The notes under the pieces: generated by a model
Seen by the model: only the letters and a program-made list of their open reading frames with translations
Databases searched by the model: none
Told to the model about the DNA's origin: nothing
IMG/VR virus record: IMGVR_UViG_2778261180_000005
DNA: 36,121 nucleotides
Reading direction: 5' to 3' (one strand)
DNA from: a virus
Lineage: Duplodnaviria > Heunggongvirae > Uroviricota > Caudoviricetes
In this document: one piece after another, positions 961 to 36,121 of the stretch
Position numbering within the stretch: the stretch's first letter is position 1
Layout: the number at the start of each line of letters is the position of its first letter
Program-made: the position numbers and the translations under genes

Positions 961-1000
961 GCCCCTATCGTTATAATACGCGGTAGGGGCGTTTTTGTTT
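961..1000 (+). terminator. rho-independent terminator
   Basis: GCCCCTATCG / CGGTAGGGGC stem (one G.T pair), 10-nt loop, then TTTTT. The loop contains TATAAT (973-978). Confidence 0.7.
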
Positions 1001-1009
1001 GGAAATGGT

Positions 1010-2689
1010 ATGAAAACTAAACTGTATTCGTATATTCGCTTCTCGTCTATGAAGCAAGCGGATGGTAGTTCTTATGAACGCCAGAAGAGAACAGCCGCAG
1101 AGATAGCCGCAAAATATGATCTTGAGCTAGTTACAAGCTATCAGGATTTTGGTGTATCTGCATTCAAAGGGGCTAACAGTAGAACAGGTGCACTATCTCG
1201 CTTTCTGGATGAGATTGGTCGATCCGTTCCGGTTGGTAGCTGGCTGGTTGTGGAAAACTTAGACCGTATCTCTCGCCAATCCATCATTGAAGCACAAGAG
1301 CTATTTCTCTCGATTATCCGTAGGGGAATAACTATCGTAACTGGCATGGATGGTAAGGTCTATAGCAAGGAATCGGTTAATGCCAATCCTATTGATTTGC
1401 TGTTGAGTGTCATGTTGTTTGCGAGAGCTAACGAGGAAAGTCAGACTAAGCGCAATCGTACTAACTCAAGCGCATTGATTAAGATTAAAGCTCATCAAGA
1501 AAATCCACAAAATCCGGCTGTTGCAATCGAGGAAATTGGAAAGAATATGTGGTGGACTGATACCACATCTGGTTATGTGCTTCCTCATCCGGTCTTCTTC
1601 CCTATTGTTCAGGAAGTTGTGGAATTACGCAGGAATGGACGGTCAACCGCCGAGATACTGGATCACCTTAACGCGACATACACACCACCACCAGCCGCAA
1701 GTCACAAGAGGCATTCAAACTGGTCACGGGCAATGATTGAAAGGTTGTTCCATACCCGCGCTTTGATTGGTATCAAGGAAATCTCTGTAGATGGCGTTAA
1801 GTATGAGTTAAAGGATTATTATCCTCGTGTGCTAGATGACGCTGAGTTTTATCACCTTAAGAAAAGCATTGGTGTTAGAGCATGTAACTATGGAGACAAG
1901 GAAGAAGTTAAACCTATTCCCTTGCTTAGTGGTGTTGGTCTATTGAAATGTGAACATTGCGGTTCCGCTATGGTTAAGGTGAAAGGAACTAACAAACGTC
2001 CTAACCAATATCGTTATTCATGCGATGCAATGCGCTCTAGTCGTATTGCATGTGTGCATACAAACTGGAGTTTTCGAGGTGATCAATTAGAGAAAGCTGT
2101 ATTGCAATTGCTGGCTGATAAAATCTGGATTGCTGAGGATAAGGCTAATCCGGTTCCGGCTTTGAAAGTACAGATTGATGAAATATCACGCAAGATTGAT
2201 AACCTGATTACCCTTTCTGCTATGACAGGAGCAACGAAGGAGCTAGCCGATCAGATTACTACCCTCAATAGCGAGCGTGAAACACTCTACAATCAAATTA
2301 AGATGGCAGAAGAGGAAATGTATTCTGTTGACTCTCAAGGCTGGGAGAAGCTCGCAGAATTTGATTTAGAAGATGTTTACAACGAGGATCGCATTAAGGT
2401 CCGGTTTAAGATTAAGCAAGCTCTAAAACGGATCGGGTGTAGCAGGATTGACAAGTACAAAAACTTGTTTGTACTGGAATACATCGATGGCAAGACCCAG
2501 AGAGTTGTAATAGAAAATTCAAGAGGACCGAGGAAAGGCCGGATCTTCGTTGATTTGAAAACTATCAATGATAGACAGATTCTGGAAAGTAACGGGCTTG
2601 TTTTGCATCCATGTTTAGACATGCTGACAGATAAGAACTGGAAACCAGAAGAGGAAATACCAGGTCCATTACAGGAATTTGGAATTTAA
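1010..2689 (+). CDS. large serine recombinase (integrase-type), 559 aa from ATG 1010
   Basis: N-terminal resolvase-type catalytic domain (YSYIRFSSMKQ...SYERQ). Central recombinase domain. Zn-ribbon CEHCGS...YSCD...IACVH. C-terminal coiled coil. The track start at 995 is a TTG inside the terminator T-run, so ATG 1010 is preferred. Confidence 0.9.
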   Translation: MKTKLYSYIRFSSMKQADGSSYERQKRTAAEIAAKYDLELVTSYQDFGVSAFKGANSRTGALSRFLDEIGRSVPVGSWLVVENLDRISRQSIIEAQELFLSIIRRGITIVTGMDGKVYSKESVNANPIDLLLSVMLFARANEESQTKRNRTNSSALIKIKAHQENPQNPAVAIEEIGKNMWWTDTTSGYVLPHPVFFPIVQEVVELRRNGRSTAEILDHLNATYTPPPAASHKRHSNWSRAMIERLFHTRALIGIKEISVDGVKYELKDYYPRVLDDAEFYHLKKSIGVRACNYGDKEEVKPIPLLSGVGLLKCEHCGSAMVKVKGTNKRPNQYRYSCDAMRSSRIACVHTNWSFRGDQLEKAVLQLLADKIWIAEDKANPVPALKVQIDEISRKIDNLITLSAMTGATKELADQITTLNSERETLYNQIKMAEEEMYSVDSQGWEKLAEFDLEDVYNEDRIKVRFKIKQALKRIGCSRIDKYKNLFVLEYIDGKTQRVVIENSRGPRKGRIFVDLKTINDRQILESNGLVLHPCLDMLTDKNWKPEEEIPGPLQEFGI

Positions 2690-2762: not shown

Positions 2763-3761
2763 TTAGAGAGCCTCTAAAGGGCTTAAATCGAGTTCTAAGT
2801 TTTCCGGTGTTAAATCAGCTAACGGTGCATTCATCCACTGCGATAAATCTCGTTCTATGTCTTCATCACTAATGTAGTTGTTCAGATTGATTGCGTTGGT
2901 ATCATCAAAATACATTGGCTTAGATGGGTTGGTGTGGATGTATTCATTGATGAATGATTTAACATCTTTCAGCTTGCTAATCGGTAGCGTTTCTGTGAAT
3001 CCGCTATTCATTACCTTACGTGGGATTTTCTTGCCCTGAATATTCTTTTTAATCCCCATTTCTAAATCACCAGCTTTCCATCCAATGTTAAACAAATGTG
3101 AGCATTCAAAGGTGATTTTCTCGCTGGTGTGCTTCTGGTGTTCTCTTACCCGTTGCATCGGATCTTTGCGAGTGGTAATTCCATATTTGAAAAACTTCTC
3201 GCCAACACGAATTAGATAAAAGTGCATAGGGCGCTGTGCAAACTTGTTTCTGATAACCTGTTTTCTACCATTCTGAATTGATTTAAGTACACCCCTAACC
3301 AAAGGGCATGTTAACCCGCCTTGTCTGCGGTTATTGTGTAAATCACCTTTCTTGTGAATCTTTCCGTGGCACTTACAACGAAGAATTAGTTTAGTGTCAA
3401 CACCCTGATAAGGTTCAGCCAGACCTAACACATCCCACCCTATCGGCTTGTAGAACTTGCGAGCGTTTTCTAAGTGTTCTTCTTCGGTAAATCTAAACTT
3501 CTTCTTAGGCGGTGATACTCTATCTTTGCCAGTAAACTGACCAGTTAGAACATGACTAATACATGGCGTTTTAACCTTTCCGTTAACTTCTATGCAAACT
3601 TTGGTGTTCTGGAATGGTTTCTTTACAGGAAGCACAAAACCACTGTATAACCATCCATGCGCTTGACAAACTTTAATGATTCTGGTTTCATATTCGACCG
3701 GAGGGGTCGCACGTTTGCTTTTTGCGGTAAATTCGATATCCTTTGCTAAAGTAGTATTCAT
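2763..3761 (-). CDS. T5orf172/GIY-YIG-superfamily nuclease-like protein (332 aa from ATG 3761)
   Basis: Motif HFYLIRVGEKFFKYGITTRKDPMQRVREH ... SGFTETL. Two N-terminal Cys/His-containing repeat modules. SD GAGGA before ATG 3761. The upstream 47 codons of the track ORF lack an SD. Confidence 0.7.
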   Translation of the reverse strand: MNTTLAKDIEFTAKSKRATPPVEYETRIIKVCQAHGWLYSGFVLPVKKPFQNTKVCIEVNGKVKTPCISHVLTGQFTGKDRVSPPKKKFRFTEEEHLENARKFYKPIGWDVLGLAEPYQGVDTKLILRCKCHGKIHKKGDLHNNRRQGGLTCPLVRGVLKSIQNGRKQVIRNKFAQRPMHFYLIRVGEKFFKYGITTRKDPMQRVREHQKHTSEKITFECSHLFNIGWKAGDLEMGIKKNIQGKKIPRKVMNSGFTETLPISKLKDVKSFINEYIHTNPSKPMYFDDTNAINLNNYISDEDIERDLSQWMNAPLADLTPENLELDLSPLEAL

Positions 3762-3796
3762 ATTAGTGTCCTCGAAAATAATAAGTTCACTACTAT

Positions 3797-4249
3797 TTAT
3801 TGAGAAAAATTTGTTGTAATGGTTGAAGACCACGGGCATGAGTAGTAACCACGACCGCCACCGATCAAGCAAATGGTCGGACGGAAGCCAGTAAGATCGC
3901 AAAATGAATCAGTGTCATGTGCTGGGGAACGATGCTCTGCTTCGTTAGAGAAAATGTTGGCTACCGGAGATTCCACTTTAACTTCCGGTGCTTCTTCAAC
4001 ATCTGACTTAACTTCTTCGACCACTGGTTCAACTGCCGGAGATTCTTCTTTTGTTTCTTCAATGACGATCTCAGGTTCTTTCATTGCTTCAACCAGAGAC
4101 GGATCAACTTCGTCGAATACCACTTTATCATCTGCGGTGTCTGCTGCCAGAATAAGATCGTTAATACTGGTTCCTTCTGCCGGAGTTTCTTCTTCCATTT
4201 CGGAAGCCAGTTTAGTTAATTCGGTTTCTACGAACTCGATCATCAACAT
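3797..4249 (-). CDS. hypothetical highly acidic protein (150 aa)
   Basis: About 30 D/E in the first ~100 residues. Same strand as the 332-aa nuclease-like gene and 35 nt upstream of it. Weak SD. The antisense S/T-rich ORF is judged an artefact. Confidence 0.45.
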   Translation of the reverse strand: MLMIEFVETELTKLASEMEEETPAEGTSINDLILAADTADDKVVFDEVDPSLVEAMKEPEIVIEETKEESPAVEPVVEEVKSDVEEAPEVKVESPVANIFSNEAEHRSPAHDTDSFCDLTGFRPTICLIGGGRGYYSCPWSSTITTNFSQ

Positions 4250-4289
4250 TAAAGGTAATGCCTATAAGATAAATTAAGTGAGGTTTTTT

Positions 4290-4871
4290 ATGATGAATGA
4301 TGTGCGCAAAGCATGTGATATCCCGTTCAATTTTATCCGCACCAAAAATGGCAAAGCGCCATCACATCCAATTGATATGGAAGCAAGGATCGTGACCCGT
4401 ATTGAAAACGAGGGTTTACCCTTGATTTATCACGGATTCAAAGGTGAGTATAAATCAATCAATAGCCGTATTGTGCTAGAGTGTGAAAGCTGCGCAAGAA
4501 TCAGAGATATAACAGCAAAACAATTCTTACATAATCCTACTGTGTGCCCGTGTAATCGTAGCAAATATGACAACAAATATAAAAATGGGCAACCAGTATT
4601 ATATGTTATGCGGTGTGGTGATGTGGGTAAGGTTGGAGTAAGTCACAATGTGTTGACGAGAAAACATAAGCTAAGATGCCAGAATAAGATGAAATTTGAT
4701 ATCATCGAGACTTTCGAATTTCAAGACGAAAAAGACGCATACGCGGCAGAATTGTTTATCAAGAAAAACCTAGTAAAAGGTGATTTTGATATTAAAGAAG
4801 GTGCTACAGAAACGTTTGTTTATAATGAAAAAATGGTCAGAAATATAGCTAACGTCGCCAGCATATTCTAA
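4290..4871 (+). CDS. T5orf172/GIY-YIG-like protein (193 aa from ATG 4290)
   Basis: Motif PVLYVMRCGDVGKVGVSHNVLTRKHKL ... EGATETF. The N-terminal module (EARIVTRIENEG...LECESC...CPCN) is paralogous to the modules of the 332-aa protein. SD GTGAGG. Confidence 0.65.
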   Translation: MMNDVRKACDIPFNFIRTKNGKAPSHPIDMEARIVTRIENEGLPLIYHGFKGEYKSINSRIVLECESCARIRDITAKQFLHNPTVCPCNRSKYDNKYKNGQPVLYVMRCGDVGKVGVSHNVLTRKHKLRCQNKMKFDIIETFEFQDEKDAYAAELFIKKNLVKGDFDIKEGATETFVYNEKMVRNIANVASIF

Positions 4872-26539: not shown

Positions 26540-28444
26540 TTAGAACGATGTTACCCAACTACGGCCTCTATTTGGACGTCTGGCGATGTTTTTACGTTGT
26601 GGTCGTGTGATTGGCTTAGTTTCTTCGATTTTCTCGTCAGATTGCGATTTAGGAGCTTTTACGGGTTCTTCGACAACACGGTTTAAGCTGTCTTTCATTG
26701 CAATGAGTTTATCCCATGACATTTTTGAAAGGACGTAGCGAGAAGCCGCTGTAGCATACACGGCGCAGTCGAGCGCCTCGTTCCTAACGCCTGGGTTCTT
26801 TACCCATCTCACGCCAGTAGTAGTACGCTTGACAGATTCACTTAAAAGCTGATCGAGATAATCATCAGGAACGGTGTCTGATATTTCTAAGCCAATATGA
26901 GGATTATCTTTCAGGTTCCTAGCCAACATTTCACGAAATGCAGTTTTACCCACATTAACACCCAACATAAGCAATTCATGACCACCTGTGCGGGTAGGTT
27001 TAACCGGAATGATCGGAGCGTTACCAGCAGAACTACCTTTGATAGCGTGTAAGTTCTTCCACTTGCCGCAAATACGGTATCCAGCTTGAGTGAATCGACC
27101 GTTCGATGTATCAAGGAAGCTGGCGAGCATAGGAACACGATCACCCGATACAGTAGTAAATTTGGTTTTATGGAAGTTGATTAATCTATCCCATACAGGG
27201 GATTCATATCGTTCACAGTTATGATCGTAAAAGCTGCGATGATCCAGAATATAAATCTTATCCTTTGCCACGCCCATGATTGTAGTTTCTGCGCGATCTA
27301 ATTGCTGGTCGGTACCCGCACACAAGAAAATCACGTCATCAGGGATATTCTCGATAGAAACATCTGTTTTTAGTTGTTCCAGTTCATTTGCTTCTACTGC
27401 CGTGTCCTGATCGTCGTATACCTTGCCTAACACGGTGTTATAAAATGATTGTAAATCAAAGGATTGCCACGCATGGCTAAAATCAACCACACAAGCGCGG
27501 ATCGTGCTGAAAGGTGAATACAGACGGCTGATCCAGAATCCTGCTACCTCACTTTCACGGGTTGCTCTCCACTCGCCTTGTGCTACTGCCCTGATTCGTT
27601 CCCCTTCGGTCCATGCGTTCTTACAGTGGGGGCAAATATAACGAGCGGTATCAGGATCGGGTAAGTTCTTACCATCGATGTTACGCCATTCAAATTGAAC
27701 GTTTTCCCACTCGATCACCTGGTGTTCCCCGCAATGAGGACACGGAACAAAAAACATACGCATATCACTTGATAACCATTGCTGGTTAATGCTTCCGAGC
27801 TTACTGGTCGGGGTACTGGATACGACTAATCGGCCTTCATCGCCAAAGGTAGTTAAACGGTTAGCAGCCAGTGCCACCGGATCACCTTCTTCTGAGGCTG
27901 TAGCAGCATCGATTTCGTCAAGCAATCCAACCTTTGCGGTCTTACCGCGTAGGGTTGATGGACTAGTAAGCGATACCATATAAAGGAAGTGGTTTGATTT
28001 GAGCTGGAGCTGATTGTTGTTATTAACAGAATTGCGATCATTCTTGTCTGTAACCACGTCTTTTAATGCATCACATGCTTCGATAGACGGTCGGATCTTA
28101 CCCGCGAGATATTGAGACATTTCTTTAGCGGTTGATTGTCCGATAATCATATTGCATGGATCGTTAGCCATCTGGTTAAACAGGATACCGTTTAGGATGG
28201 TAGTTTTTCCGATCTGCGCACTGGTCATCAGTACATACTTTTTCTTATTCTCAAGGAAAGGAGCATCAATCATGCCTTTCTGGAATGACAGCAATTTAAC
28301 TTTATCCCCCGCTTGAGGACCATCTACCAGCACCATATTCGCTTCGCACCATTCAGAAGGAAGGAGTTTAGGCGGTGGCGTAATATATTTGGCTGCATTT
28401 TTGAGAATCTTTTTTAATTTGGCCTTATTAGAAATCAGTTTCAT
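26540..28444 (-). CDS. terminase large subunit, lambda gpA type (634 aa)
   Basis: Walker A SAQIGKTT, Walker [11 protein letters not shown], paired CxxC motifs (CPHCGEHQ ... CPHCKNAW). First gene of the late operon. SD GAGGGT. Confidence 0.95.
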
Positions 28445-28529
28445 GTAATTACCCTCATTACGAAATATGAAGGTATTTATTAAATTGTTGATATTTTGAT
28501 AAATACGGGTATTAATTAAAGGGGGGTGT

Positions 28530-29132
28530 ATGCTAATTAATCAGCAACAAAGAGATGAATTAGAATTAGCCTTGTCTTGTACCGATCATGAATATCGTTT
28601 ACCAGTTAAGCATAAGCATTTAAAAACCGACTACACAACATCTGGCTTTAGTCGTGAGGAAGCGAAAGAGATTTTAATAGAGTTTTACCGCGATAATGGT
28701 TATACAGACGTTCACAACTTCTTTAAGAAGCATAGAACATCACATACAGAGTTTCGGAGAGTCCGAGATTGGTTTGATTTTGATATCAAGCGTTATTATC
28801 GAGTGGATGACGGTCCTATCTATCGGTTGCAGTGGACACCGATCAGGGAAGTGTTGAAACAGAAGAGATTGAATCACGCAATTACACGCTATCGTAACGA
28901 GGCTTTCAAGAAAGGCTATGGTGATACAAGGGAACTATTCGTTGAACTCGCTAACGTGCGTTATAGCCACTATTACAACGATCCTAAAGGGTTCTTTGAA
29001 GTGCTTCGCAAGGTTGATATAAGTCGGGGTACATACTATTCACGGTTGAAGAAGTACGGGATTAAGGCAGAGTTCTTTATGAGTATTGACGATGGAGAAC
29101 TTTTTCCGATAAAATGTAAGTCCTCTAAATAA
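28530..29132 (+). CDS. DNA-binding protein with two tandem copies of a ~55-aa HTH module (200 aa)
   Basis: Internal duplication. The second module, [30 protein letters not shown], matches the 75-aa and 60-aa proteins. SD GGGGGG. Confidence 0.7.
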
Positions 29133-29166
29133 AGGTGAACATTCACTTTAATTTGGAGAAATGACT

Positions 29167-29394
29167 ATGACTACTAAAGCTACTCGCGGTCGTCCTTGCC
29201 GTTTTAACGCTGAACAGATGGCTGATATTGCCTACGCTTACTATACAGCGGATCGTGGTAAGGAAGCGAAAGAACAGATTCTTAGTGAACATGGGATCTC
29301 AATCGCCCAATTCTATAAGAATATGAAGAAGTTAGACATTAAATTCTATGTTCAGATCGGTGATGGTCAGATCGTAGAAGCAACAGGTTTTTGA
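29167..29394 (+). CDS. small HTH protein, paralogue family (75 aa from ATG 29167)
   Basis: RGRPCRF...GISIAQFYKNMKKLDIKFYVQIGDGQIV. GGAG lies 8 nt before ATG 29167 but only 2 nt before ATG 29161. Confidence 0.7.
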   Translation: MTTKATRGRPCRFNAEQMADIAYAYYTADRGKEAKEQILSEHGISIAQFYKNMKKLDIKFYVQIGDGQIVEATGF

Positions 29395-29409
29395 GTTTTG
29401 ATTCTCTTT

Positions 29410-29433
29410 GCCACTCTTCGGAGTGGCTTTTTT
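29410..29433 (+). terminator. rho-independent terminator
   Basis: GCCACTC-TTCG-GAGTGGC followed by TTTTTT. Confidence 0.85.
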
Positions 29434-29568
29434 GTATGTAAAACAATCTCGCCAGTTTTGGTGAGATCTATAGATGCCCTCAAAACTGAGGGGATGTGCT
29501 TAAAGTTCAGCATATCTATCTAAGTGGTTGATTCTTTCTAGAAATCCAAATCTGGATGCATCAGATAC

Positions 29569-29598
29569 AAAAAAGCCCAGCGCAATTATGCGCCGGGC
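29569..29598 (-). terminator. rho-independent terminator after the Rha-like gene
   Basis: Minus strand reads GCCCGGCGCA-TAAT-TGCGCTGGGC followed by TTTTTT. Confidence 0.8.
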
Positions 29599-29604
29599 GA
29601 TTAA

Positions 29605-30435
29605 TCAGATCCCAAAATCAACAAGGGAAATTACGTTACCTGATTCACGAATCTGTTTAGCAGCTTTGTTTTGAATCAGAATAGTGTTGTTCGGCTTAGG
29701 AAGATTCAGAGTTGCTTTTTGTTCTTCTTCCAGAATACCCAATTCAACCAACACAGGAAGAACATCAACCGTAAACTCAAGTTGGTAGTGAGCATTCATG
29801 CGGCAGAAAGACAGAGAAGAGTCATTAGCAACATACCCACACGGCTTGTTATTTTCATCGTAGACGCGCTCAATGTAGCCAGCAGTACGCAAGGCCGTTA
29901 GTGCTTCTTTAACCTTCGTAGCGCCCTTTTTAGCGCCTAACAGACGGGTCATTGAATGGCTATCTACTGATTTGCGAACATGAAGTTCAATCAGCTTTTT
30001 ATTTTCGCGAGTTTTCTTTAATGCCAGTTCGATCCAGTCTGTTTCTTCAAAGTCTGCATATGGATTAACGGCTAAACGTTCCTGACGCAGTTTTTCATTT
30101 TCTTCTTTCAGTCGCTTCCATTCCTGAATAACAACCATTCGACGCTTAACATCGTAACCAGTGACAAGAGTCAGCGTCATTTCTTCGTCTAAGTGATATA
30201 CTGGTTCTTTAACAGCATATCCTAAGTTATTGATTCTCTCGACAAATTCAGTTTTGAGCTGATCGATAATACCTAAAGATTCGTACATTTCGCGAATATC
30301 GCGCATTACATTGCTGTGCTTCTTATCGGTAAATTCAGCGATCTGACGAGAAGACATGGTCAGCGGTTTGGTGTTATCAACAACCAGAGACATTGAAGCA
30401 GTTTTAACAGTATTCATAGTAGTAACAGTATTCAT
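29605..30435 (-). CDS. Rha-family phage regulatory protein with C-terminal winged-helix-like domain (276 aa)
   Basis: MSSRQIAEFTDKKHSNVMRDIREM is the Rha N-terminal signature. The first 18 nt are tandemly duplicated (MNTVTT/MNTVKT). Confidence 0.8.
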   Translation of the reverse strand: MNTVTTMNTVKTASMSLVVDNTKPLTMSSRQIAEFTDKKHSNVMRDIREMYESLGIIDQLKTEFVERINNLGYAVKEPVYHLDEEMTLTLVTGYDVKRRMVVIQEWKRLKEENEKLRQERLAVNPYADFEETDWIELALKKTRENKKLIELHVRKSVDSHSMTRLLGAKKGATKVKEALTALRTAGYIERVYDENNKPCGYVANDSSLSFCRMNAHYQLEFTVDVLPVLVELGILEEEQKATLNLPKPNNTILIQNKAAKQIRESGNVISLVDFGI

Positions 30436-30538
30436 AGTAAAAATTCCCCTTAAACGGTTTAGTGATTGATTCTCCTGTTTTTAACTGTCCACACGCCAAC
30501 GGCGCGCGGAACAATTTTATTTATAAGAAGTTTTTATC

Positions 30539-30685
30539 TCATTTAGATTCAGCAATCGCGCGATCAATTTCTTCTTGAATGCGACGCTGGCGTTCATGGA
30601 AGTCAACCATTGAGAAATTCAGGTTTGGGGTCCACGGTTTGCGGTTCGGGTTTTTACGTCCATCAATTTTCTTAGTAGTGTTCAT
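30539..30685 (-). CDS. putative small basic protein (48 aa)
   Basis: Not in the ORF track. MNTTKKIDGRKNPNRKPWTPNLNFSMVDFHERQRRIQEEIDRAIAESK. SD AGAGGA 8 nt upstream. About 50 nt downstream of a strong promoter. Confidence 0.5.
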   Translation of the reverse strand: MNTTKKIDGRKNPNRKPWTPNLNFSMVDFHERQRRIQEEIDRAIAESK

Positions 30686-30743
30686 AATTAACATCCTCTT
30701 TACAAATCTAGGTCAAATAGGTTCAAAGTTGTCAAGTGCGATA

Positions 30744-30772
30744 ATCATAAAAAAGTCATAAAATTTTGTCAA
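30744..30772 (-). promoter_or_regulatory. sigma70-type promoter driving the 48-aa ORF and Rha gene
   Basis: Minus strand has TTGACA (30772-30767), a 17-nt spacer, and TATGAT (30749-30744). Confidence 0.7.
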
Positions 30773-30785
30773 TACCCCTTGACAA
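30766..30785. promoter_or_regulatory. operator-like palindrome TTGTCAA-N6-TTGACAA overlapping the -35
   Basis: Perfect 7-bp inverted repeat. Further TTGAC(A/C)-type half sites at about 30711, 30721, 30729 and 30798. Confidence 0.5.
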
Positions 30786-30807
30786 GACGCCAAAGGGTTG
30801 ACCTAAC

Positions 30808-31260
30808 TTACAGCATATCTAAGCCTTCATCGTAACCGTAGAAGCCATTCTGAGAAGAGAAGCAGATTGGTGCGTAGTCGTCGTCATCTTCGTCTTGTTC
30901 ATCGTGTTCTGGGGCTTCCTGAGCGGGTTGTTTACCATAATCAGCCATAATCTGGTCAAGATCGGCGATCCCATAGTAAGAGCCTAAATCAACGTCATAT
31001 TCACGAACATCAAACGGCAGGTCATCACGAACAATAATTGCCGGAATGTTGTTGTATTGTTCACGACCTTCATCAGTAAAGCAGTCTACGATCACCGTAG
31101 GGCGACCATTACGTTTAAGAGCATAGAAAGCAGTTGAGAAATTGGAGTCTTCGGAATGACGAATGATGTTATAACCACGATTAGCGAAAACATGCATCAT
31201 AGCCAGATTATCATCATGGTTCAGACCCAGAAGAATGAAAGGAGTTTTAGTATTGATCAT
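30808..31260 (-). CDS. hypothetical protein with highly acidic C-terminal tail (150 aa)
   Basis: SD AGAGGA. C-terminus EAPEHDEQDEDDDDYAPICF...YDEGLDML. No family recognised. Confidence 0.7.
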   Translation of the reverse strand: MINTKTPFILLGLNHDDNLAMMHVFANRGYNIIRHSEDSNFSTAFYALKRNGRPTVIVDCFTDEGREQYNNIPAIIVRDDLPFDVREYDVDLGSYYGIADLDQIMADYGKQPAQEAPEHDEQDEDDDDYAPICFSSQNGFYGYDEGLDML

Positions 31261-31356
31261 AGTGGAAATCCTCTAAAAGAAAGTGAATCAAAGTAAGTTC
31301 ACTATTATTTATAACGAGAAATTTTTGTCTAATTTGAAAGGAATTGGTATTCAGTC

Positions 31357-31858
31357 GGCTTCGCCTCCTTCATAGATTTTGATTAAATCATCATCAAAAC
31401 GAAGAAGTATCTTTAGAATATAAGAATCTTTCTTTTGGAGAAATAATAATCCGGAAGCAATTTAGCAACCGAAGGTTGCAATCCCGAAGGGATACCAATA
31501 CCTTTCATGATCATTAAAGTGATCTAGAATCATCTAGTAACCAGTTAACTACTATTATCTTCAAAGTGATTATTACTATCTTTCTAGAATCAGTTAGTAA
31601 CTAGTTTAAAATCCCTTTCAAGAAAATCCTTTCAGAAGTGATTCTCGATGCCACGCAGTGGCGTCGCAGACGTTTGAGAGTGAGCGAAGCGAGCGAGCAA
31701 ACTAGTTAATTCCTTCTAAGACCATCTAGTATCATCTAGTTTAAATTAGTGTTACTAGAAGTAATTGGTTAGCGCTTCGCGCAGTCGGGCTACGCCCTCC
31801 TAATATCTTTTTGGTTATTTGTTGTTTTTGGTTTTACACATGAGCGTAGCGAATGTGT
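31357..31858. repeat. cluster of G/C-clamped mini-hairpins with trinucleotide GNA (or complementary TNC) loops
   Basis: GGC-TTC-GCC 31357. GCAACC-GAA-GGTTGC 31465. ATCCC-GAA-GGGAT 31481. GATGCCAC-GCA-GTGGCGTC 31647. GC-GAA-GC 31684. GCGC-TTC-GCGC 31772. GGGC-TAC-GCCC 31787. ACACAT-ga(GC-GTA-GC)ga-ATGTGT 31836. Confidence 0.75.
31523..31606. repeat. two copies of a 24-bp CTAG-rich repeat exactly 60 bp apart
   Basis: TCTAGAATCATCTAGTAACCAGTT (31523-31546) and TCTAGAATCAGTTAGTAACTAGTT (31583-31606), 21/24 identical. Related CATCTAGT motifs at 31724-31740. Confidence 0.75.
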
Positions 31859-31890
31859 TATATAATATCTATGCACGCCCGATCCCCCGC

Positions 31891-32133
31891 TTTTGCCCCT
31901 CACTAAGTTAATGTTTTATAAAGAGTTTTTCTCACCAATCCTTTTCGGGGGCAAATTTCAGGGGCAAAAATTAGATTTTCAGGGGCAATTATTGGCATTT
32001 CAGGGGCAAAAATGAGGGGCAAAATCACTGTTTCCCAGAATTTCAGGGGCAAAAATAGTGGGTTTCAGGGGCAAAAATGGGATAGTGAAATCTAGGGGAT
32101 TTTGGTTCAGGGGCAAAATTCAGGGGCAAATTT
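31891..32133. repeat. iteron array: nine direct copies of (T)TTCAGGGGCAAA(A) plus one inverted copy
   Basis: GGGGCAA cores start at 31948, 31961, 31982, 32003, 32016, 32046, 32068, 32110 and 32123. The inverted copy is at 31893-31899. Confidence 0.9.
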
Positions 32134-32135
32134 CA

Positions 32136-32185
32136 TAGTGTAGGGCTAGTGTAGGTTTGAAAATCCTTTGTTGACACTGTGTAGG
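32136..32185. promoter_or_regulatory. three GTGTAGG operator-like repeats around the promoter
   Basis: TAGTGTAGG at 32136-32144 and 32147-32155. TGTGTAGG at 32178-32185, inside the -35/-10 spacer. Confidence 0.6.
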
Positions 32186-32199
32186 ATCGGTGGTATACT
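32171..32199 (+). promoter_or_regulatory. near-consensus sigma70 promoter with extended -10
   Basis: TTGACA (32171-32176), 17-nt spacer, TGgTATACT (32191-32199). Confidence 0.8.
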
Positions 32200-32465
32200 T
32201 GAAAATTCGAGATAAATATGTTATAATATTTGTATTGAAAGTGAAAATTTACCGATTTTCCTTCCTATTGTTATCACTGTGTTAAATTGTTATATGTCTG
32301 TGAAGATTTGGATCTGAGAGAAAATCTTGTAACAAATCTTTACAATTCATAGCTCAATTAATGCTCACCGCTTTAGCAAAAAGTGCTATGCCTTTTTCTA
32401 AATTGATTGAATAAACATCAATTTGGTTAATTCGTGTTCTTCTCTTTAGCAATTCGTGCTGCGGT

Positions 32466-32512
32466 TTAACACATTTAACACGCCTGATAACATCCAAATA
32501 ACATTTTAACAT
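32466..32512. repeat. five phased (T/A)TAACA(C/T) repeats in AT-rich DNA
   Basis: TTAACAC at 32466 and 32475. ATAACAT at 32487 and 32498. TTAACAT at 32506. Spacing is 8-12 bp. Confidence 0.5.
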
Positions 32513-32591
32513 ATCTCTGTTCTAAATACATATATAAGAGATAAATGTGAGGGGTTGAAAAATTAAAAACAATCCCCATATAAATAATAGT

Positions 32592-32612
32592 GAGCGGTTA
32601 ACGCTCTTTTTT
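32592..32612 (+). terminator. short terminator/attenuator at the end of the untranslated leader
   Basis: GAGCG-GTTAA-CGCTC followed by TTTTTT. Lies 35 nt before the start of the 60-aa HTH gene. Confidence 0.55.
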
Positions 32613-32647
32613 AAGAAATCATTAATCCAGATTTAGGAGGATTCAAG

Positions 32648-32830
32648 ATGGCACGACCTGTTAAGTTCACTCGTGAAATCGTTTTAGAAATGGCAAAGCG
32701 TTATTTTGAACTGACGCCTGATGTAGTGATTGGTGAATGGTTTAAAGGTGAAGGTATTGATCAATCAACCTTCCACAAACTCTTAAAGAAGTATGACATT
32801 AAAGTAAAGATAACCGCAGAGGTTTACTGA
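32648..32830 (+). CDS. small HTH protein, paralogue family (60 aa)
   Basis: ARPVKFTREIV...GIDQSTFHKLLKKYDIKVKIT. Strong SD AGGAGG. Confidence 0.75.
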   Translation: MARPVKFTREIVLEMAKRYFELTPDVVIGEWFKGEGIDQSTFHKLLKKYDIKVKITAEVY

Positions 32831-32872
32831 TACTTTGACTGAGAATTATATGATGGCTTTAAAAATAAAAAA

Positions 32873-32900
32873 GCCCCCTTGCGGCAACAAGGAGGCTTTT
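32873..32900 (+). terminator. terminator-like hairpin
   Basis: GCCCCCTTG-6nt-CAAGGAGGC (one mismatch) followed by TTTT. Confidence 0.6.
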
Positions 32901-32942
32901 GCGATGAACAATTAAAACTAACTTTCCACAGGAGTATTTATA

Positions 32943-33884
32943 ATGTTATTTTCCGCTAACTTTTTCACTAACGAAGTAACCAACGCTAAAGCAGTTATCA
33001 AATTTGGCACCGAAGCAAACAAGAAGATTCAGCCGAAAGTTGTTGCTCATGTTTCCTTTGCGCAGCAGAAATCCGCTTTCGCTGGCTTTAAAGCACATCG
33101 TGAAGCACTGATCGCGGCTGGCTTTGGTGTTGACGGTAAACTGCCTAACGGCATTCGTAAAGCAATCGACCGCGTTAAACCTGCTAAAGACGTTGCAGTA
33201 GACCACATCGTTACTTTTACCGTTAAGAACTCTTCTGAACTGTTCCACCTGGTTATTGCTGGTGATACTGCTATCGTTTCCGCTCCTAACATGGATTTTC
33301 AGGATACCGCTGATTGCCAGATCACCTTCGGTCGTCGTAAAGAAGTTACCGGAAAAGCTAAACTGAACTTCACTAAATCCGGCAATCCTTACTTTGCTGT
33401 TTTCTTTAACAGCCACGCTACCGAAAAAGAAGTTGTAGAACTGGTTGCTTATGAAGGTGAAGAGAAAGAACGTATTGAATCTTGCGAAGCATTTCTGGAA
33501 CTGGAAGCACAGGTGAATGCTGTTTCTCCGGTTGTTGAAGATCGCTTTGCTGCACTGGAAGCACAGATCGCAGAACTGAAAGCTGCACTGGAAGAAAAAG
33601 ACCAGATTATCGAAGCACAGAAAGCTGAGATTGAAGAACTGAAAGCTAAAGAAGTTGCTCCGGTAGCAGTAGTTGAAAACGCGGCTGATGAGGCCGCAAA
33701 TGATGAAGTAGAAGTGAAAATCGATGTGATGCGTGATCCGATGGCTGCACTGCAATTACTTCGTTCTTTTAAGGGCAAATCTCATTTTTCTAGTGATGTA
33801 GAAGATGAGGAAGAAGAACAGAAACGCAATGCTGCAATGCTTCATGATGAAATGTACGGTACTAACTTTTCTTACTGCCAATAA
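32943..33884 (+). CDS. abundant-expression-type protein of unknown function (313 aa): globular N-domain, coiled coil, acidic C-terminus
   Basis: SD AGGAG. Codon choice is dominated by E. coli high-expression codons (CTG, GAA, AAA, CGT, GGT, GCT). Coiled coil FAALEAQIAELKAALEEKDQIIEAQKAEIEELKAK. Confidence 0.85.
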   Translation: MLFSANFFTNEVTNAKAVIKFGTEANKKIQPKVVAHVSFAQQKSAFAGFKAHREALIAAGFGVDGKLPNGIRKAIDRVKPAKDVAVDHIVTFTVKNSSELFHLVIAGDTAIVSAPNMDFQDTADCQITFGRRKEVTGKAKLNFTKSGNPYFAVFFNSHATEKEVVELVAYEGEEKERIESCEAFLELEAQVNAVSPVVEDRFAALEAQIAELKAALEEKDQIIEAQKAEIEELKAKEVAPVAVVENAADEAANDEVEVKIDVMRDPMAALQLLRSFKGKSHFSSDVEDEEEEQKRNAAMLHDEMYGTNFSYCQ

Positions 33885-34547: not shown

Positions 34548-35105
34548 TTAAGACACATCAAATTCATCGTCTTCTTCTGGTTCTTGTTCTTCCGGTTCAT
34601 CCATTAATGGTAATTCTTCTTCCTCGTCTTCTCCCAAATCTGCATTTTCGAACAAGTCCCCTACTTCATTTAAACGACGCTCGATAATCTCCCTTAGCTT
34701 ATTCTTTAATGTTTTCTGGTCAGTGGCAGATTCGAGAATTTCTAAAGCGTCGATTGTGGCGATCTGCAAAATAGTCTGCTTCACTTTCCCGCAGTATTCC
34801 GCTAGCTCCTGCTCCACATAACCGACGGGAATCAGGAGATTCATTTTTTCCTGGTTCTCTCGTTCGATGGCGTCCGCTAATGCTCTTTCTCTGCGGAGAC
34901 GTTCTTGATCAATCGCTTCTTTGATTGAAGTTTGTTTAAGTGGGTTAATTACGTTCTTTAGCACCCAATCGCAACCTTCCTTTGCTGGTACACGACGCGT
35001 GTGGGTGTTCATCGGTAGTCCCCTTTCTAACCATCGCTTACCGCCACCATTCAATGTATAGCCATATAAACGGGAAATTTCTGTAAGGGTTAATTCTTCT
35101 TTCAT
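34548..35105 (-). CDS. putative terminase small subunit, Nu1-like winged-HTH protein (185 aa)
   Basis: The N-terminus LTLTEISRLYGYTLNGGGKRWLERGLPM...VPAKEGCDWV parallels lambda Nu1 (KKQLADIFGASIRTIQNWQEQGMPV...). Coiled-coil middle, acidic tail. SD GGAGGA. Confidence 0.55.
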   Translation of the reverse strand: MKEELTLTEISRLYGYTLNGGGKRWLERGLPMNTHTRRVPAKEGCDWVLKNVINPLKQTSIKEAIDQERLRRERALADAIERENQEKMNLLIPVGYVEQELAEYCGKVKQTILQIATIDALEILESATDQKTLKNKLREIIERRLNEVGDLFENADLGEDEEEELPLMDEPEEQEPEEDDEFDVS

Positions 35106-35401: not shown

Positions 35402-35707
35402 ATGAAGACTAAAGATATTAAGATTGAATTTGAAACTGTTGATGACGTTCGGGAACATCGTATTGATTCTACTGGCTGCATCTTCCAGCTTACTAACTCC
35501 CCTATTGGATTGATTATCTATGTAGCAGAAGATGACGTGTACGCTATGTGGGATGGACAGGATGAATTTAAAGGCGGGAATAGCCATCTGATCAATACTC
35601 ATGAGGGATTCGATCCGACTCCTGTCTGTATGCTTGCTTATCACGTAACACTGGATGAACTACCGGAAGCAAGCGCGCGTATCCGTAAAATGAAAGATAT
35701 TAAGTGA
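35402..35707 (+). CDS. hypothetical protein (101 aa)
   Basis: SD GAGGG 6 nt upstream, terminator downstream. Preferred over the overlapping minus-strand ORF 35351-35644. Confidence 0.6.
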   Translation: MKTKDIKIEFETVDDVREHRIDSTGCIFQLTNSPIGLIIYVAEDDVYAMWDGQDEFKGGNSHLINTHEGFDPTPVCMLAYHVTLDELPEASARIRKMKDIK

Positions 35708-35770: not shown

Positions 35771-36121
35771 TTATTGGGGTTTACAACATTTAGGTTTGCC
35801 AATTCGCCTGGCTAACTCTTGCTGAGTGATTTCTGACTGTAAAAAAGCATTTAACAGCAATACTTTAGAGGCGACGCTCAAAGGTACTTCAATAAAGTGA
35901 TCATGACTATTTAATGGCGAAGGTAACGGGATAAGCTCGTTATCTTCAAAATAAAAATCAAATGCGGTCAGTAAAGCATCTTTTGCCGCTTCCATCGCTT
36001 CAGCGACAGTTTCGCCCTGCGTCAACGCTTCAGGGATATCCACAAAAGAAACCATATAACCGCCTTCCGGCGCGGGTGTAAGAGTGACGGGATAACGCAT
36101 AATTTCGACTGTCTCTCGCAT
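35771..36121 (-). pseudogene. hicB: hicB antitoxin gene truncated by the phage insertion (HicB residues 1-104 plus 5 phage-encoded codons CCKPQ)
   Basis: MRYPVTLTPAPEGGYMVSFVDIPEALTQGETVAEAMEAAKDALLTAFDFYFEDNELIPLPSPLNSHDHFIEVPLSVASKVLLLNAFLQSEITQQELARRIGKPK matches E. coli HicB as I recall it. The native protein continues QEITRLFN...; here it continues CCKPQ-stop. Confidence 0.85.

Follow-up and report, generated by a model that had tools for sequence, protein, structure and literature searches.

The question raised by this locus is whether the small helix–turn–helix (HTH) proteins encoded on either side of a long gene-free region of a temperate phage belong to one family, and which DNA such proteins might read. 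The DNA under study is a stretch of 36,121 nucleotides from a virus of the Caudoviricetes (IMG/VR record IMGVR_UViG_2778261180_000005), referred to here as the window. A reading of the letters alone (the sequence-only reading) had described four paralogous HTH modules in three genes and proposed them as a dedicated regulatory set for the different repeat classes of the region. This proposal is partly supported: it was right on the fold class and wrong on the targets. The three genes, termed A, B, and C, are annotated as encoding 'hypothetical proteins' in the RefSeq annotation of a near-identical prophage. Their positions, and those of the two modules within A, are as follows:

28530–29132, plus strand: gene A, open reading frame (ORF) for 200 amino acids with two HTH modules
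28629–28829, plus strand: module A_N, residues 34–100 of A, with helices at 42–56, 61–67, and 72–82 and a β-hairpin at 86–99 (AlphaFold2, hhalign, first domain of the hidden Markov model (HMM) search)
28911–29114, plus strand: module A_C, residues 128–195 of A, with helices at 134–147, 152–161, and 166–175 and a β-hairpin at 180–192 (AlphaFold2, hhalign)
29167–29394, plus strand: gene B, ORF for 75 amino acids with a single module
32648–32830, plus strand: gene C, ORF for 60 amino acids with a single module

The modules are about 55–65 amino acids long. Pairwise BLASTP of the module pieces gave E-values between 5e-5 and 6e-7, except for A_N versus A_C. Family alignments were built for A, B, and C and compared profile to profile with hhalign over 47–66 aligned columns. 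The probability was 96.8% for B–C (E 2.5e-10), 96.0% for A_N–C (E 4e-9), 95.9% for A_N–B (E 6e-9), 95.3% for A_C–C (E 2e-8), 91.1% for A_C–B (E 1e-6), and 76.3% for A_N–A_C (E 2e-5). As a null, the columns of one partner were shuffled 60 times per pair. The observed scores of 32–51 compare with shuffled means of 9–13 (standard deviation about 2.5, maximum 19), and none of the 60 shuffles reached the observed score for any pair. A combined module HMM recovered exactly four modules from the 556 ORFs of at least 30 amino acids in the window; the next match had an E-value of 0.73, and no fifth copy was detected in this set. The same four-module set was found in 40 related loci. The paralogy of the modules is therefore real and statistically solid, and all four lie where they had been placed before. 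Both arms, RGRPxRF in B and ARPVKF in C, are likewise present and nearly invariant in the family alignments, and the third helices have the signature I-(S/D)-x-x-x-(F/Y)-(Y/H)-x-x-(L/M)-K-K in common. The description of A_N as a degenerate copy holds at the level of this motif, but by profile A_N is closer to B and C than A_C is. Homologues of the three families, all 'hypothetical', occur in Escherichia coli, Shigella, Salmonella, Proteus, and Edwardsiella; the 43 homologues of A are from E. coli, Salmonella, and Proteus.

The HTH fold was borne out by structure prediction. In the AlphaFold2 (AF2) model obtained with the A alignment, one unit occurs twice (residues 42–99 and 134–192; predicted local distance difference test (pLDDT) 84–91): three helices, the last of them preceded by a turn of four residues, and then a β-hairpin. 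The model of B contains the same unit behind its disordered RGRPxRF arm (pLDDT of the helices 81–87), and its third helix, ISIAQ(F/Y)YK, hardly varies within the family. Hairpins follow helix 3 at residues 86–99 and 180–192 of A and 61–71 of B, which corresponds to the winged-helix arrangement of three helices and a 'wing', and no specific winged-helix family matched A, B, or C. C consists of a single module behind its arm and lacks the D-G hairpin turn, so that this turn is not common to all modules as the sequence-only reading had it. In A, the conserved N-terminal tail (residues 1–33) and the basic linker between the modules (residues 101–127, pI 11) were modeled with low confidence. A_C is the better conserved half of the protein (mean pairwise identity 0.65 vs. 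0.53 for A_N), and the hairpins are the most conserved segments of A. All three proteins are basic (pI 8.8–9.4). The paralogy, the predicted HTH fold, and the basic character of all three proteins lead one to expect DNA binding, which is inferred here, as is each specific role proposed below.

Scans of A, B, and C against Pfam, PHROG, and NCBIfam gave nothing at threshold. For HTH_Tnp_1 (PF01527; gathering threshold 24.1 bits), C reached 12.3 bits (E 0.2) and A showed no match, while 9 of 28 B/C family members gave sub-threshold matches (best E 0.017). HTH_7 (PF02796; gathering threshold 23.8 bits) matched 3 of these 28 members below threshold (best E 0.059), and HTH_17 matched neither A, B, and C nor any of the 28. 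HMM searches of the PDB sequences with the module profile and the A profile retrieved nothing below E 0.09. When the combined B and C profile was compared with 1.8 billion cluster representatives, only 17 proteins were found at E ≤1e-3. Most of the matches from outside the family had four to seven matched stretches, and the six such proteins that were scanned all lie well above the HTH_Tnp_1 threshold; most of them also pass HTH_23, HTH_28, or HTH_7. Formal membership thus fails for each named Pfam family. Since the Pfam matches of the module are sub-threshold while its tandem relatives pass these models, the module is, judged from the profile matches, an unannotated, divergent branch of the HTH group typified by transposases and resolvases, to which a β-hairpin has been added. 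The metagenomic proteins P0087, P0088, P0090, P0091, P0093, and P0096, retrieved with the B and C profile, consist of four to seven tandem transposase-type HTH modules (HTH_Tnp_1, HTH_23, HTH_28) and have no informative name.

With OrfA of the IS3 family (HTH_Tnp_1 and the related HTH_23 and HTH_28), A, B, and C have the tri-helical HTH fold in common. They differ from it by scores below the gathering threshold, by the conserved β-hairpin after the third helix, by their context in a phage control region, and by the absence of a transposase catalytic ORF nearby; no transposase was found among the neighbors of A, B, and C in about 40 loci. In comparison with the C-terminal domain of resolvases and Hin (HTH_7), the modules are again below threshold, and they are free-standing or duplicated without a fused serine-recombinase catalytic domain. 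Because A combines two unlike modules with a basic linker, the bipartite two-HTH domains of CENP-B (residues 1–129), the Tc3 transposase, and the paired domain are among the closest known systems, and A might read a composite DNA site in a similar manner. We propose that one module, composed of a transposase/resolvase-type, homeodomain-like three-helix HTH and a two-stranded β-hairpin, with a short basic arm that reads (G)RPxxF in B and C, was duplicated inside A and spread to two more genes in the early/regulatory region of this lineage of temperate Enterobacterales phages of about 36 kb. A 64-amino-acid, C-like single-module protein (MARPVKFTREIV...) was also found in a T4-like phage contig (L080, 5454–5648; L081, 167–361), encoded in a three-gene insert on the opposite strand between genes matching the T4 gp19-like tail-tube and gp2 Pfam families. 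Spread of the module is thus not confined to the prophage lineage described here.

The window represents such a phage, a 95% identical copy of which splits codB in the chromosome of E. coli 39EVA, where it occupies positions 1216578–1252406 of NZ_CP138416.1. At one end of the prophage, a large serine recombinase/integrase is encoded (window 995–2689), which contains the domains Resolvase, Recombinase, and Zn_ribbon_recom and is devoid of HTH_7. The late operon runs on the minus strand from 28444 downwards. Its first gene encodes a gpA-type large terminase subunit (TerL, 26540–28444) and is followed by the genes for a head–tail joining protein, a portal, a protease–capsid fusion, tail proteins, and an M15 endolysin. 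The lineage was detected in 58 of 5426 complete E. coli genomes (about 1%) as well as in Salmonella and Proteus. No cultured phage resembling the region was present in the isolate collection, where TerL is at most 45% identical to any isolate, and megablast and tblastn against 50,697 phage records gave no match to the region or to A. A profile search of genome contigs with the A alignment yielded no confirmed locus, and no papers were found on the prophage or the RefSeq protein accessions. The gene set is kept in about 40 prophages from E. coli, Salmonella, and Proteus in the strict order TerL (minus strand), A and B (plus), Rha, a small gene, and p150 (minus), 1.2–1.9 kb of non-coding DNA, and C and p313 (plus). 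A and C are present in every relative. B is an accessory gene absent from L049 and L051, and Rha is missing from L039 and L044. All control-region genes of the lineage are annotated as 'hypothetical'. The loci are highly mosaic; in a comparison of 43 loci, clustering at 80% identity resulted in 4 TerL, 11 A, 5 B, 10 p150, 6 C, and 11 p313 clusters, which occur in many combinations. This mosaicism offers a direct test of which protein reads the repeats. Two features are central to it:

31884–32135, no strand assigned: array of the iteron CAGGGGCAAA with at least eight direct copies and one inverted copy, not a target of the modules
32943–33884, plus strand: gene of p313, a 313-amino-acid protein (313–330 amino acids across loci) whose type covaries with the iterons

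The array is part of the gene-free region (31261–32647, about 1.4 kb), which is kept in every relative and contains GC-rich hairpins, CTAGT repeats, and tandem promoters in addition to the iterons. An Rfam scan of positions 28300–33100 gave nothing near any gathering score. The dominant iteron differs between loci (CAGGGGCAA, AGTGTAGG, CGGGGA, ACTAGAAA, CTAGGGAT, TGTACATC, CACGGACAAAA, or GTTATAGGACA), and its type matches the p313 cluster one-to-one in the 43 loci, with 11 clusters, 8 iteron types, and no cluster with two types. The match holds although gene C lies between the array and p313. The HTH genes do not follow this pattern: the A1 type was combined with four iteron types or more, and five were found with each of B1, B2, and C1. 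CTAGT repeats are most abundant in loci with an R1-type p313, and GTGTAGG, of which the window has three copies, is the principal iteron in loci with a different p313 type. Iterons are thus excluded as targets of A, B, and C. Scans of p313 against Pfam, PHROG, and NCBIfam gave no family annotation; from the covariation, it is the best candidate for the iteron-binding protein and likely a replication initiator. Because iteron type covaries with the p313 cluster, the origin-binding role that had been considered for the HTH proteins fits p313 instead. The remaining repeat class, TTGTCAA-N6-TTGACAA with a third TTGTCAA box (30717–30790), surrounds a promoter of the small-gene/Rha unit with an 11/12 match to the sigma-70 consensus. 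Its boxes are absent in L038 and L044, both without Rha, and a single box is present in L049; as a promoter and hairpin element, TTGTCAA/TTGACAA is otherwise nearly invariant across all A, B, and C types. It therefore carries no information on paralogue specificity and was rejected as a paralogue-specific operator; it could be a terminator for p150, an operator, or both. The idea of a regulatory set dedicated to four repeat classes is not supported by these results. Among the candidates examined across loci, no site covarying with A, B, or C was found.

The immediate surroundings of A and B comprise the following elements:

28445–28529, no strand assigned: TerL–A spacer of 85 bp between the divergent genes, with two back-to-back TATAAATA-like boxes at 28474–28481 (minus strand) and 28498–28505 (plus strand)
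29410–29427, plus strand: intrinsic-terminator-like hairpin ending the A–B transcription unit

Conservation of the spacer extends to all A and TerL types; in L038 and L049, its boxes are merged into a single palindrome, ATATTTATAAATAT. An inverted repeat within the spacer, GTATTTAT/ATAAATAC, was considered as an operator of A and rejected, because the same (D)ATAAATA box occurs in the correct orientation 25–60 nucleotides upstream of many genes and hence reads as a −10 element. This box is marginally enriched (13 observed vs. 8.4 expected). The expectation that each HTH gene has its own promoter holds only in part: A is preceded by a TATAAATA-like −10 box only, the promoter of B, with a 10/12 match to the sigma-70 consensus, falls within the 3' end of A, and a conserved terminator hairpin precedes C.

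In codons 14–17 of A (window about 28572–28581), a (CTTGT)n tract has two units in the window, nine in L033 (10042–10086), and seven in L035 (10042–10076). Both expansions frameshift A, and the tract could be a means of hypermutable or phase-variable inactivation of the gene.

C is the first gene to the right of the non-coding region and is located upstream of p313. It occurs in six sequence types, which reassort independently of the iterons. Tandem strong promoters at 32171–32227 are separated from C by a leader of about 450 nucleotides, at whose end one element stands out:

32592–32606, plus strand: terminator-like hairpin with T-run directly upstream of the C ribosome-binding site (sequence, conservation)

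From 32579 to 32612, a TATAAATA box is followed by the GC hairpin and the T-run. The palindrome GAGCGGTTAACGCTC in this segment was considered as an operator of C and rejected. All six C types retain the hairpin and the T-run, and changes in the stem are compensatory (e.g., GAGC/GCTC to GGGC/GCCC), which identifies the palindrome as a terminator. Expression of C and p313 therefore appears to need read-through. A second, bidirectional terminator was observed between C and p313 (32869–32900). The leader also contains a 19-mer, CTCTTTAGCAATTCGTGCT (core CTTTAGCA-N5-TGCT), at 32442–32460, with an imperfect second copy at 32369–32387. This 19-mer is 100% identical in 26 loci, very divergent ones from Salmonella included, while the flanking sequences are not conserved and the spacing to C differs between loci. 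It could be a control element acting at the RNA level or by protein binding.

Taken together, we lean towards the view that the lytic program is regulated by A, B, and C as sequence-specific DNA-binding proteins peculiar to this lineage, with A acting late, C early from a Cro-like position, and B as an accessory. A, back-to-back with the TerL-first late operon, would switch on or gate late transcription; this role is favored because the 85-bp spacer is common to A and the late promoter, and that promoter lacks a good −35 box. C, whose gene opens the rightward unit and precedes that of the initiator-like p313, would be an early regulator or autoregulator, and B may be a single-module modulator. 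The comparison of C with lambda Cro concerns position and role only: both are small HTH proteins (C has 60 amino acids) encoded by the first rightward gene, ahead of a candidate initiator and next to a divergent control region. There is no relationship in sequence or family, no operators were identified for C, and a terminator hairpin lies directly upstream of it. Given the common third-helix signature, the two-module A might compete with B and C, which have one module each, for related half-sites and thereby time the early-to-late transition, but such a competitive switch is a long shot. If true, it would belong to a temperate lineage without a CI/Cro-type repressor, with small and large terminase genes split by the early region, and maybe with a conserved leader RNA and terminator for immunity.

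Among the other roles considered, that of A or C as the repressor maintaining the prophage (immunity protein) survives best, although it is still improbable. More broadly, a repressor- or antirepressor-like mode of regulation, as put forward in the sequence-only reading, may apply to these proteins. Both are small HTH proteins in the control region, family scans of the window proteins found no CI-type repressor, and the division of C into six types is the kind of diversification usual for immunity genes. However, A is frameshifted in the two resident prophages mentioned above and is therefore not required for prophage silence, and among E. coli prophages in which all other control-region genes differ, it is nearly uniform (88–100% identical). 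C, for its part, lies behind the conserved terminator hairpin, and no type-specific operator is located nearby.

The suggestion that B or C is the recombination directionality factor (RDF) of the large serine integrase appears quite unlikely. In its favor, integration in this phage relies on a large serine recombinase, and an RDF is missing from the annotation; the RDFs known for serine integrases vary widely and include ones of only 58–75 amino acids. The types B1/B2 and C1/C2/C3, however, reassort freely with the integrase identity classes (100, 94, 87, and 77%), which is a weak test since the integrases are all of one family and at least 77% identical. Moreover, the same A1/B1/C1 set occurs at two integration sites, codB and a PHP-gene site, two relatives lack B altogether, and the HTH genes are located about 27 kb from the integrase gene in the prophage. 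The earlier suggestion of a directionality factor thus found no support.

A function of A and/or B as small terminase subunit (TerS) or cos/pac recognition protein of the adjacent gpA-type TerL is very unlikely, given a further gene of the window:

34548–35105, minus strand: small-terminase candidate of 185 amino acids (phrog_57 'terminase small subunit', E 6.4e-10)

A adjoins TerL where the related packaging modules of Foxunavirus and Jilinvirus have a Nu1-type TerS. TerS proteins have N-terminal HTH domains that fall broadly into the same class, and the Pfam models Sf6_terminase and Phage_terminase match the tandem-array relatives of the module. In contrast to such modules, A is divergent from TerL and transcribed away from it, and A of the A1 type is found together with TerL types sharing only 58% identity. 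The A profile compared with the Nu1-type TerS of Murka and ECO1230-10 gave hhalign probabilities of 0.1–0.3%, and PF07471 was not matched. From this lack of similarity and the separate candidate, which is conserved in relatives, we conclude that A and B are not TerS. The candidate is separated from TerL by the whole early/regulatory region of about 6 kb, an arrangement unusual for Nu1/gpA-type packaging modules.

That the modules are origin- or iteron-binding proteins, one per repeat class, as their closeness to the repeat-rich 1.4 kb region might suggest, is extremely unlikely in view of the one-to-one match of iterons and p313, the four or five iteron types found with single A, B, and C types, the peak of CTAGT counts in R1-type loci, and the invariant TTGTCAA element.

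Several observations concern other parts of the window and one related record. The right end of the window (35771–36121 on the minus strand, 35402–35707 on the plus strand) is not the same as in the copy inserted in codB of E. coli 39EVA; neither a codB nor a PHP flank was found there, and the last ORF has, by eye, the look of a HicB-type antitoxin. Two ORFs between the lysis genes and the integrase, the expected place of a lysogeny module, match one shared part of phrog_681 ('endonuclease'): 2763–3902 on the minus strand (379 amino acids) and 4278–4871 on the plus strand (197 amino acids), the latter also with a CapR-homology domain. Escherichia phage DCP80 (L037, PQ671644.1) is classed as a T4-like member of the Straboviridae and encodes a lambda-type gpA terminase 45% identical to TerL of the window. 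This could reflect chimeric assembly of the record. The module is unrelated to the small genes that precede TerL in this phage.

The family formed by A, B, and C is new to the databases, but it is a familiar kind of protein in a familiar kind of place, and phage regulatory regions commonly show such lineage-specific expansions of a small HTH domain. The control region is the more unusual object, with its 1.4 kb of gene-free DNA, iterons matched to p313 across an intervening gene, a universal 19-mer, and the split of TerS and TerL. The reassignment of the iterons to p313 provides a clean prediction. The modules constitute an unannotated branch of the transposase-type HTH superfamily, which could become a Pfam or PHROG family and improve prophage annotation, and they offer a first handle on the control region of an uncharacterized prophage lineage.
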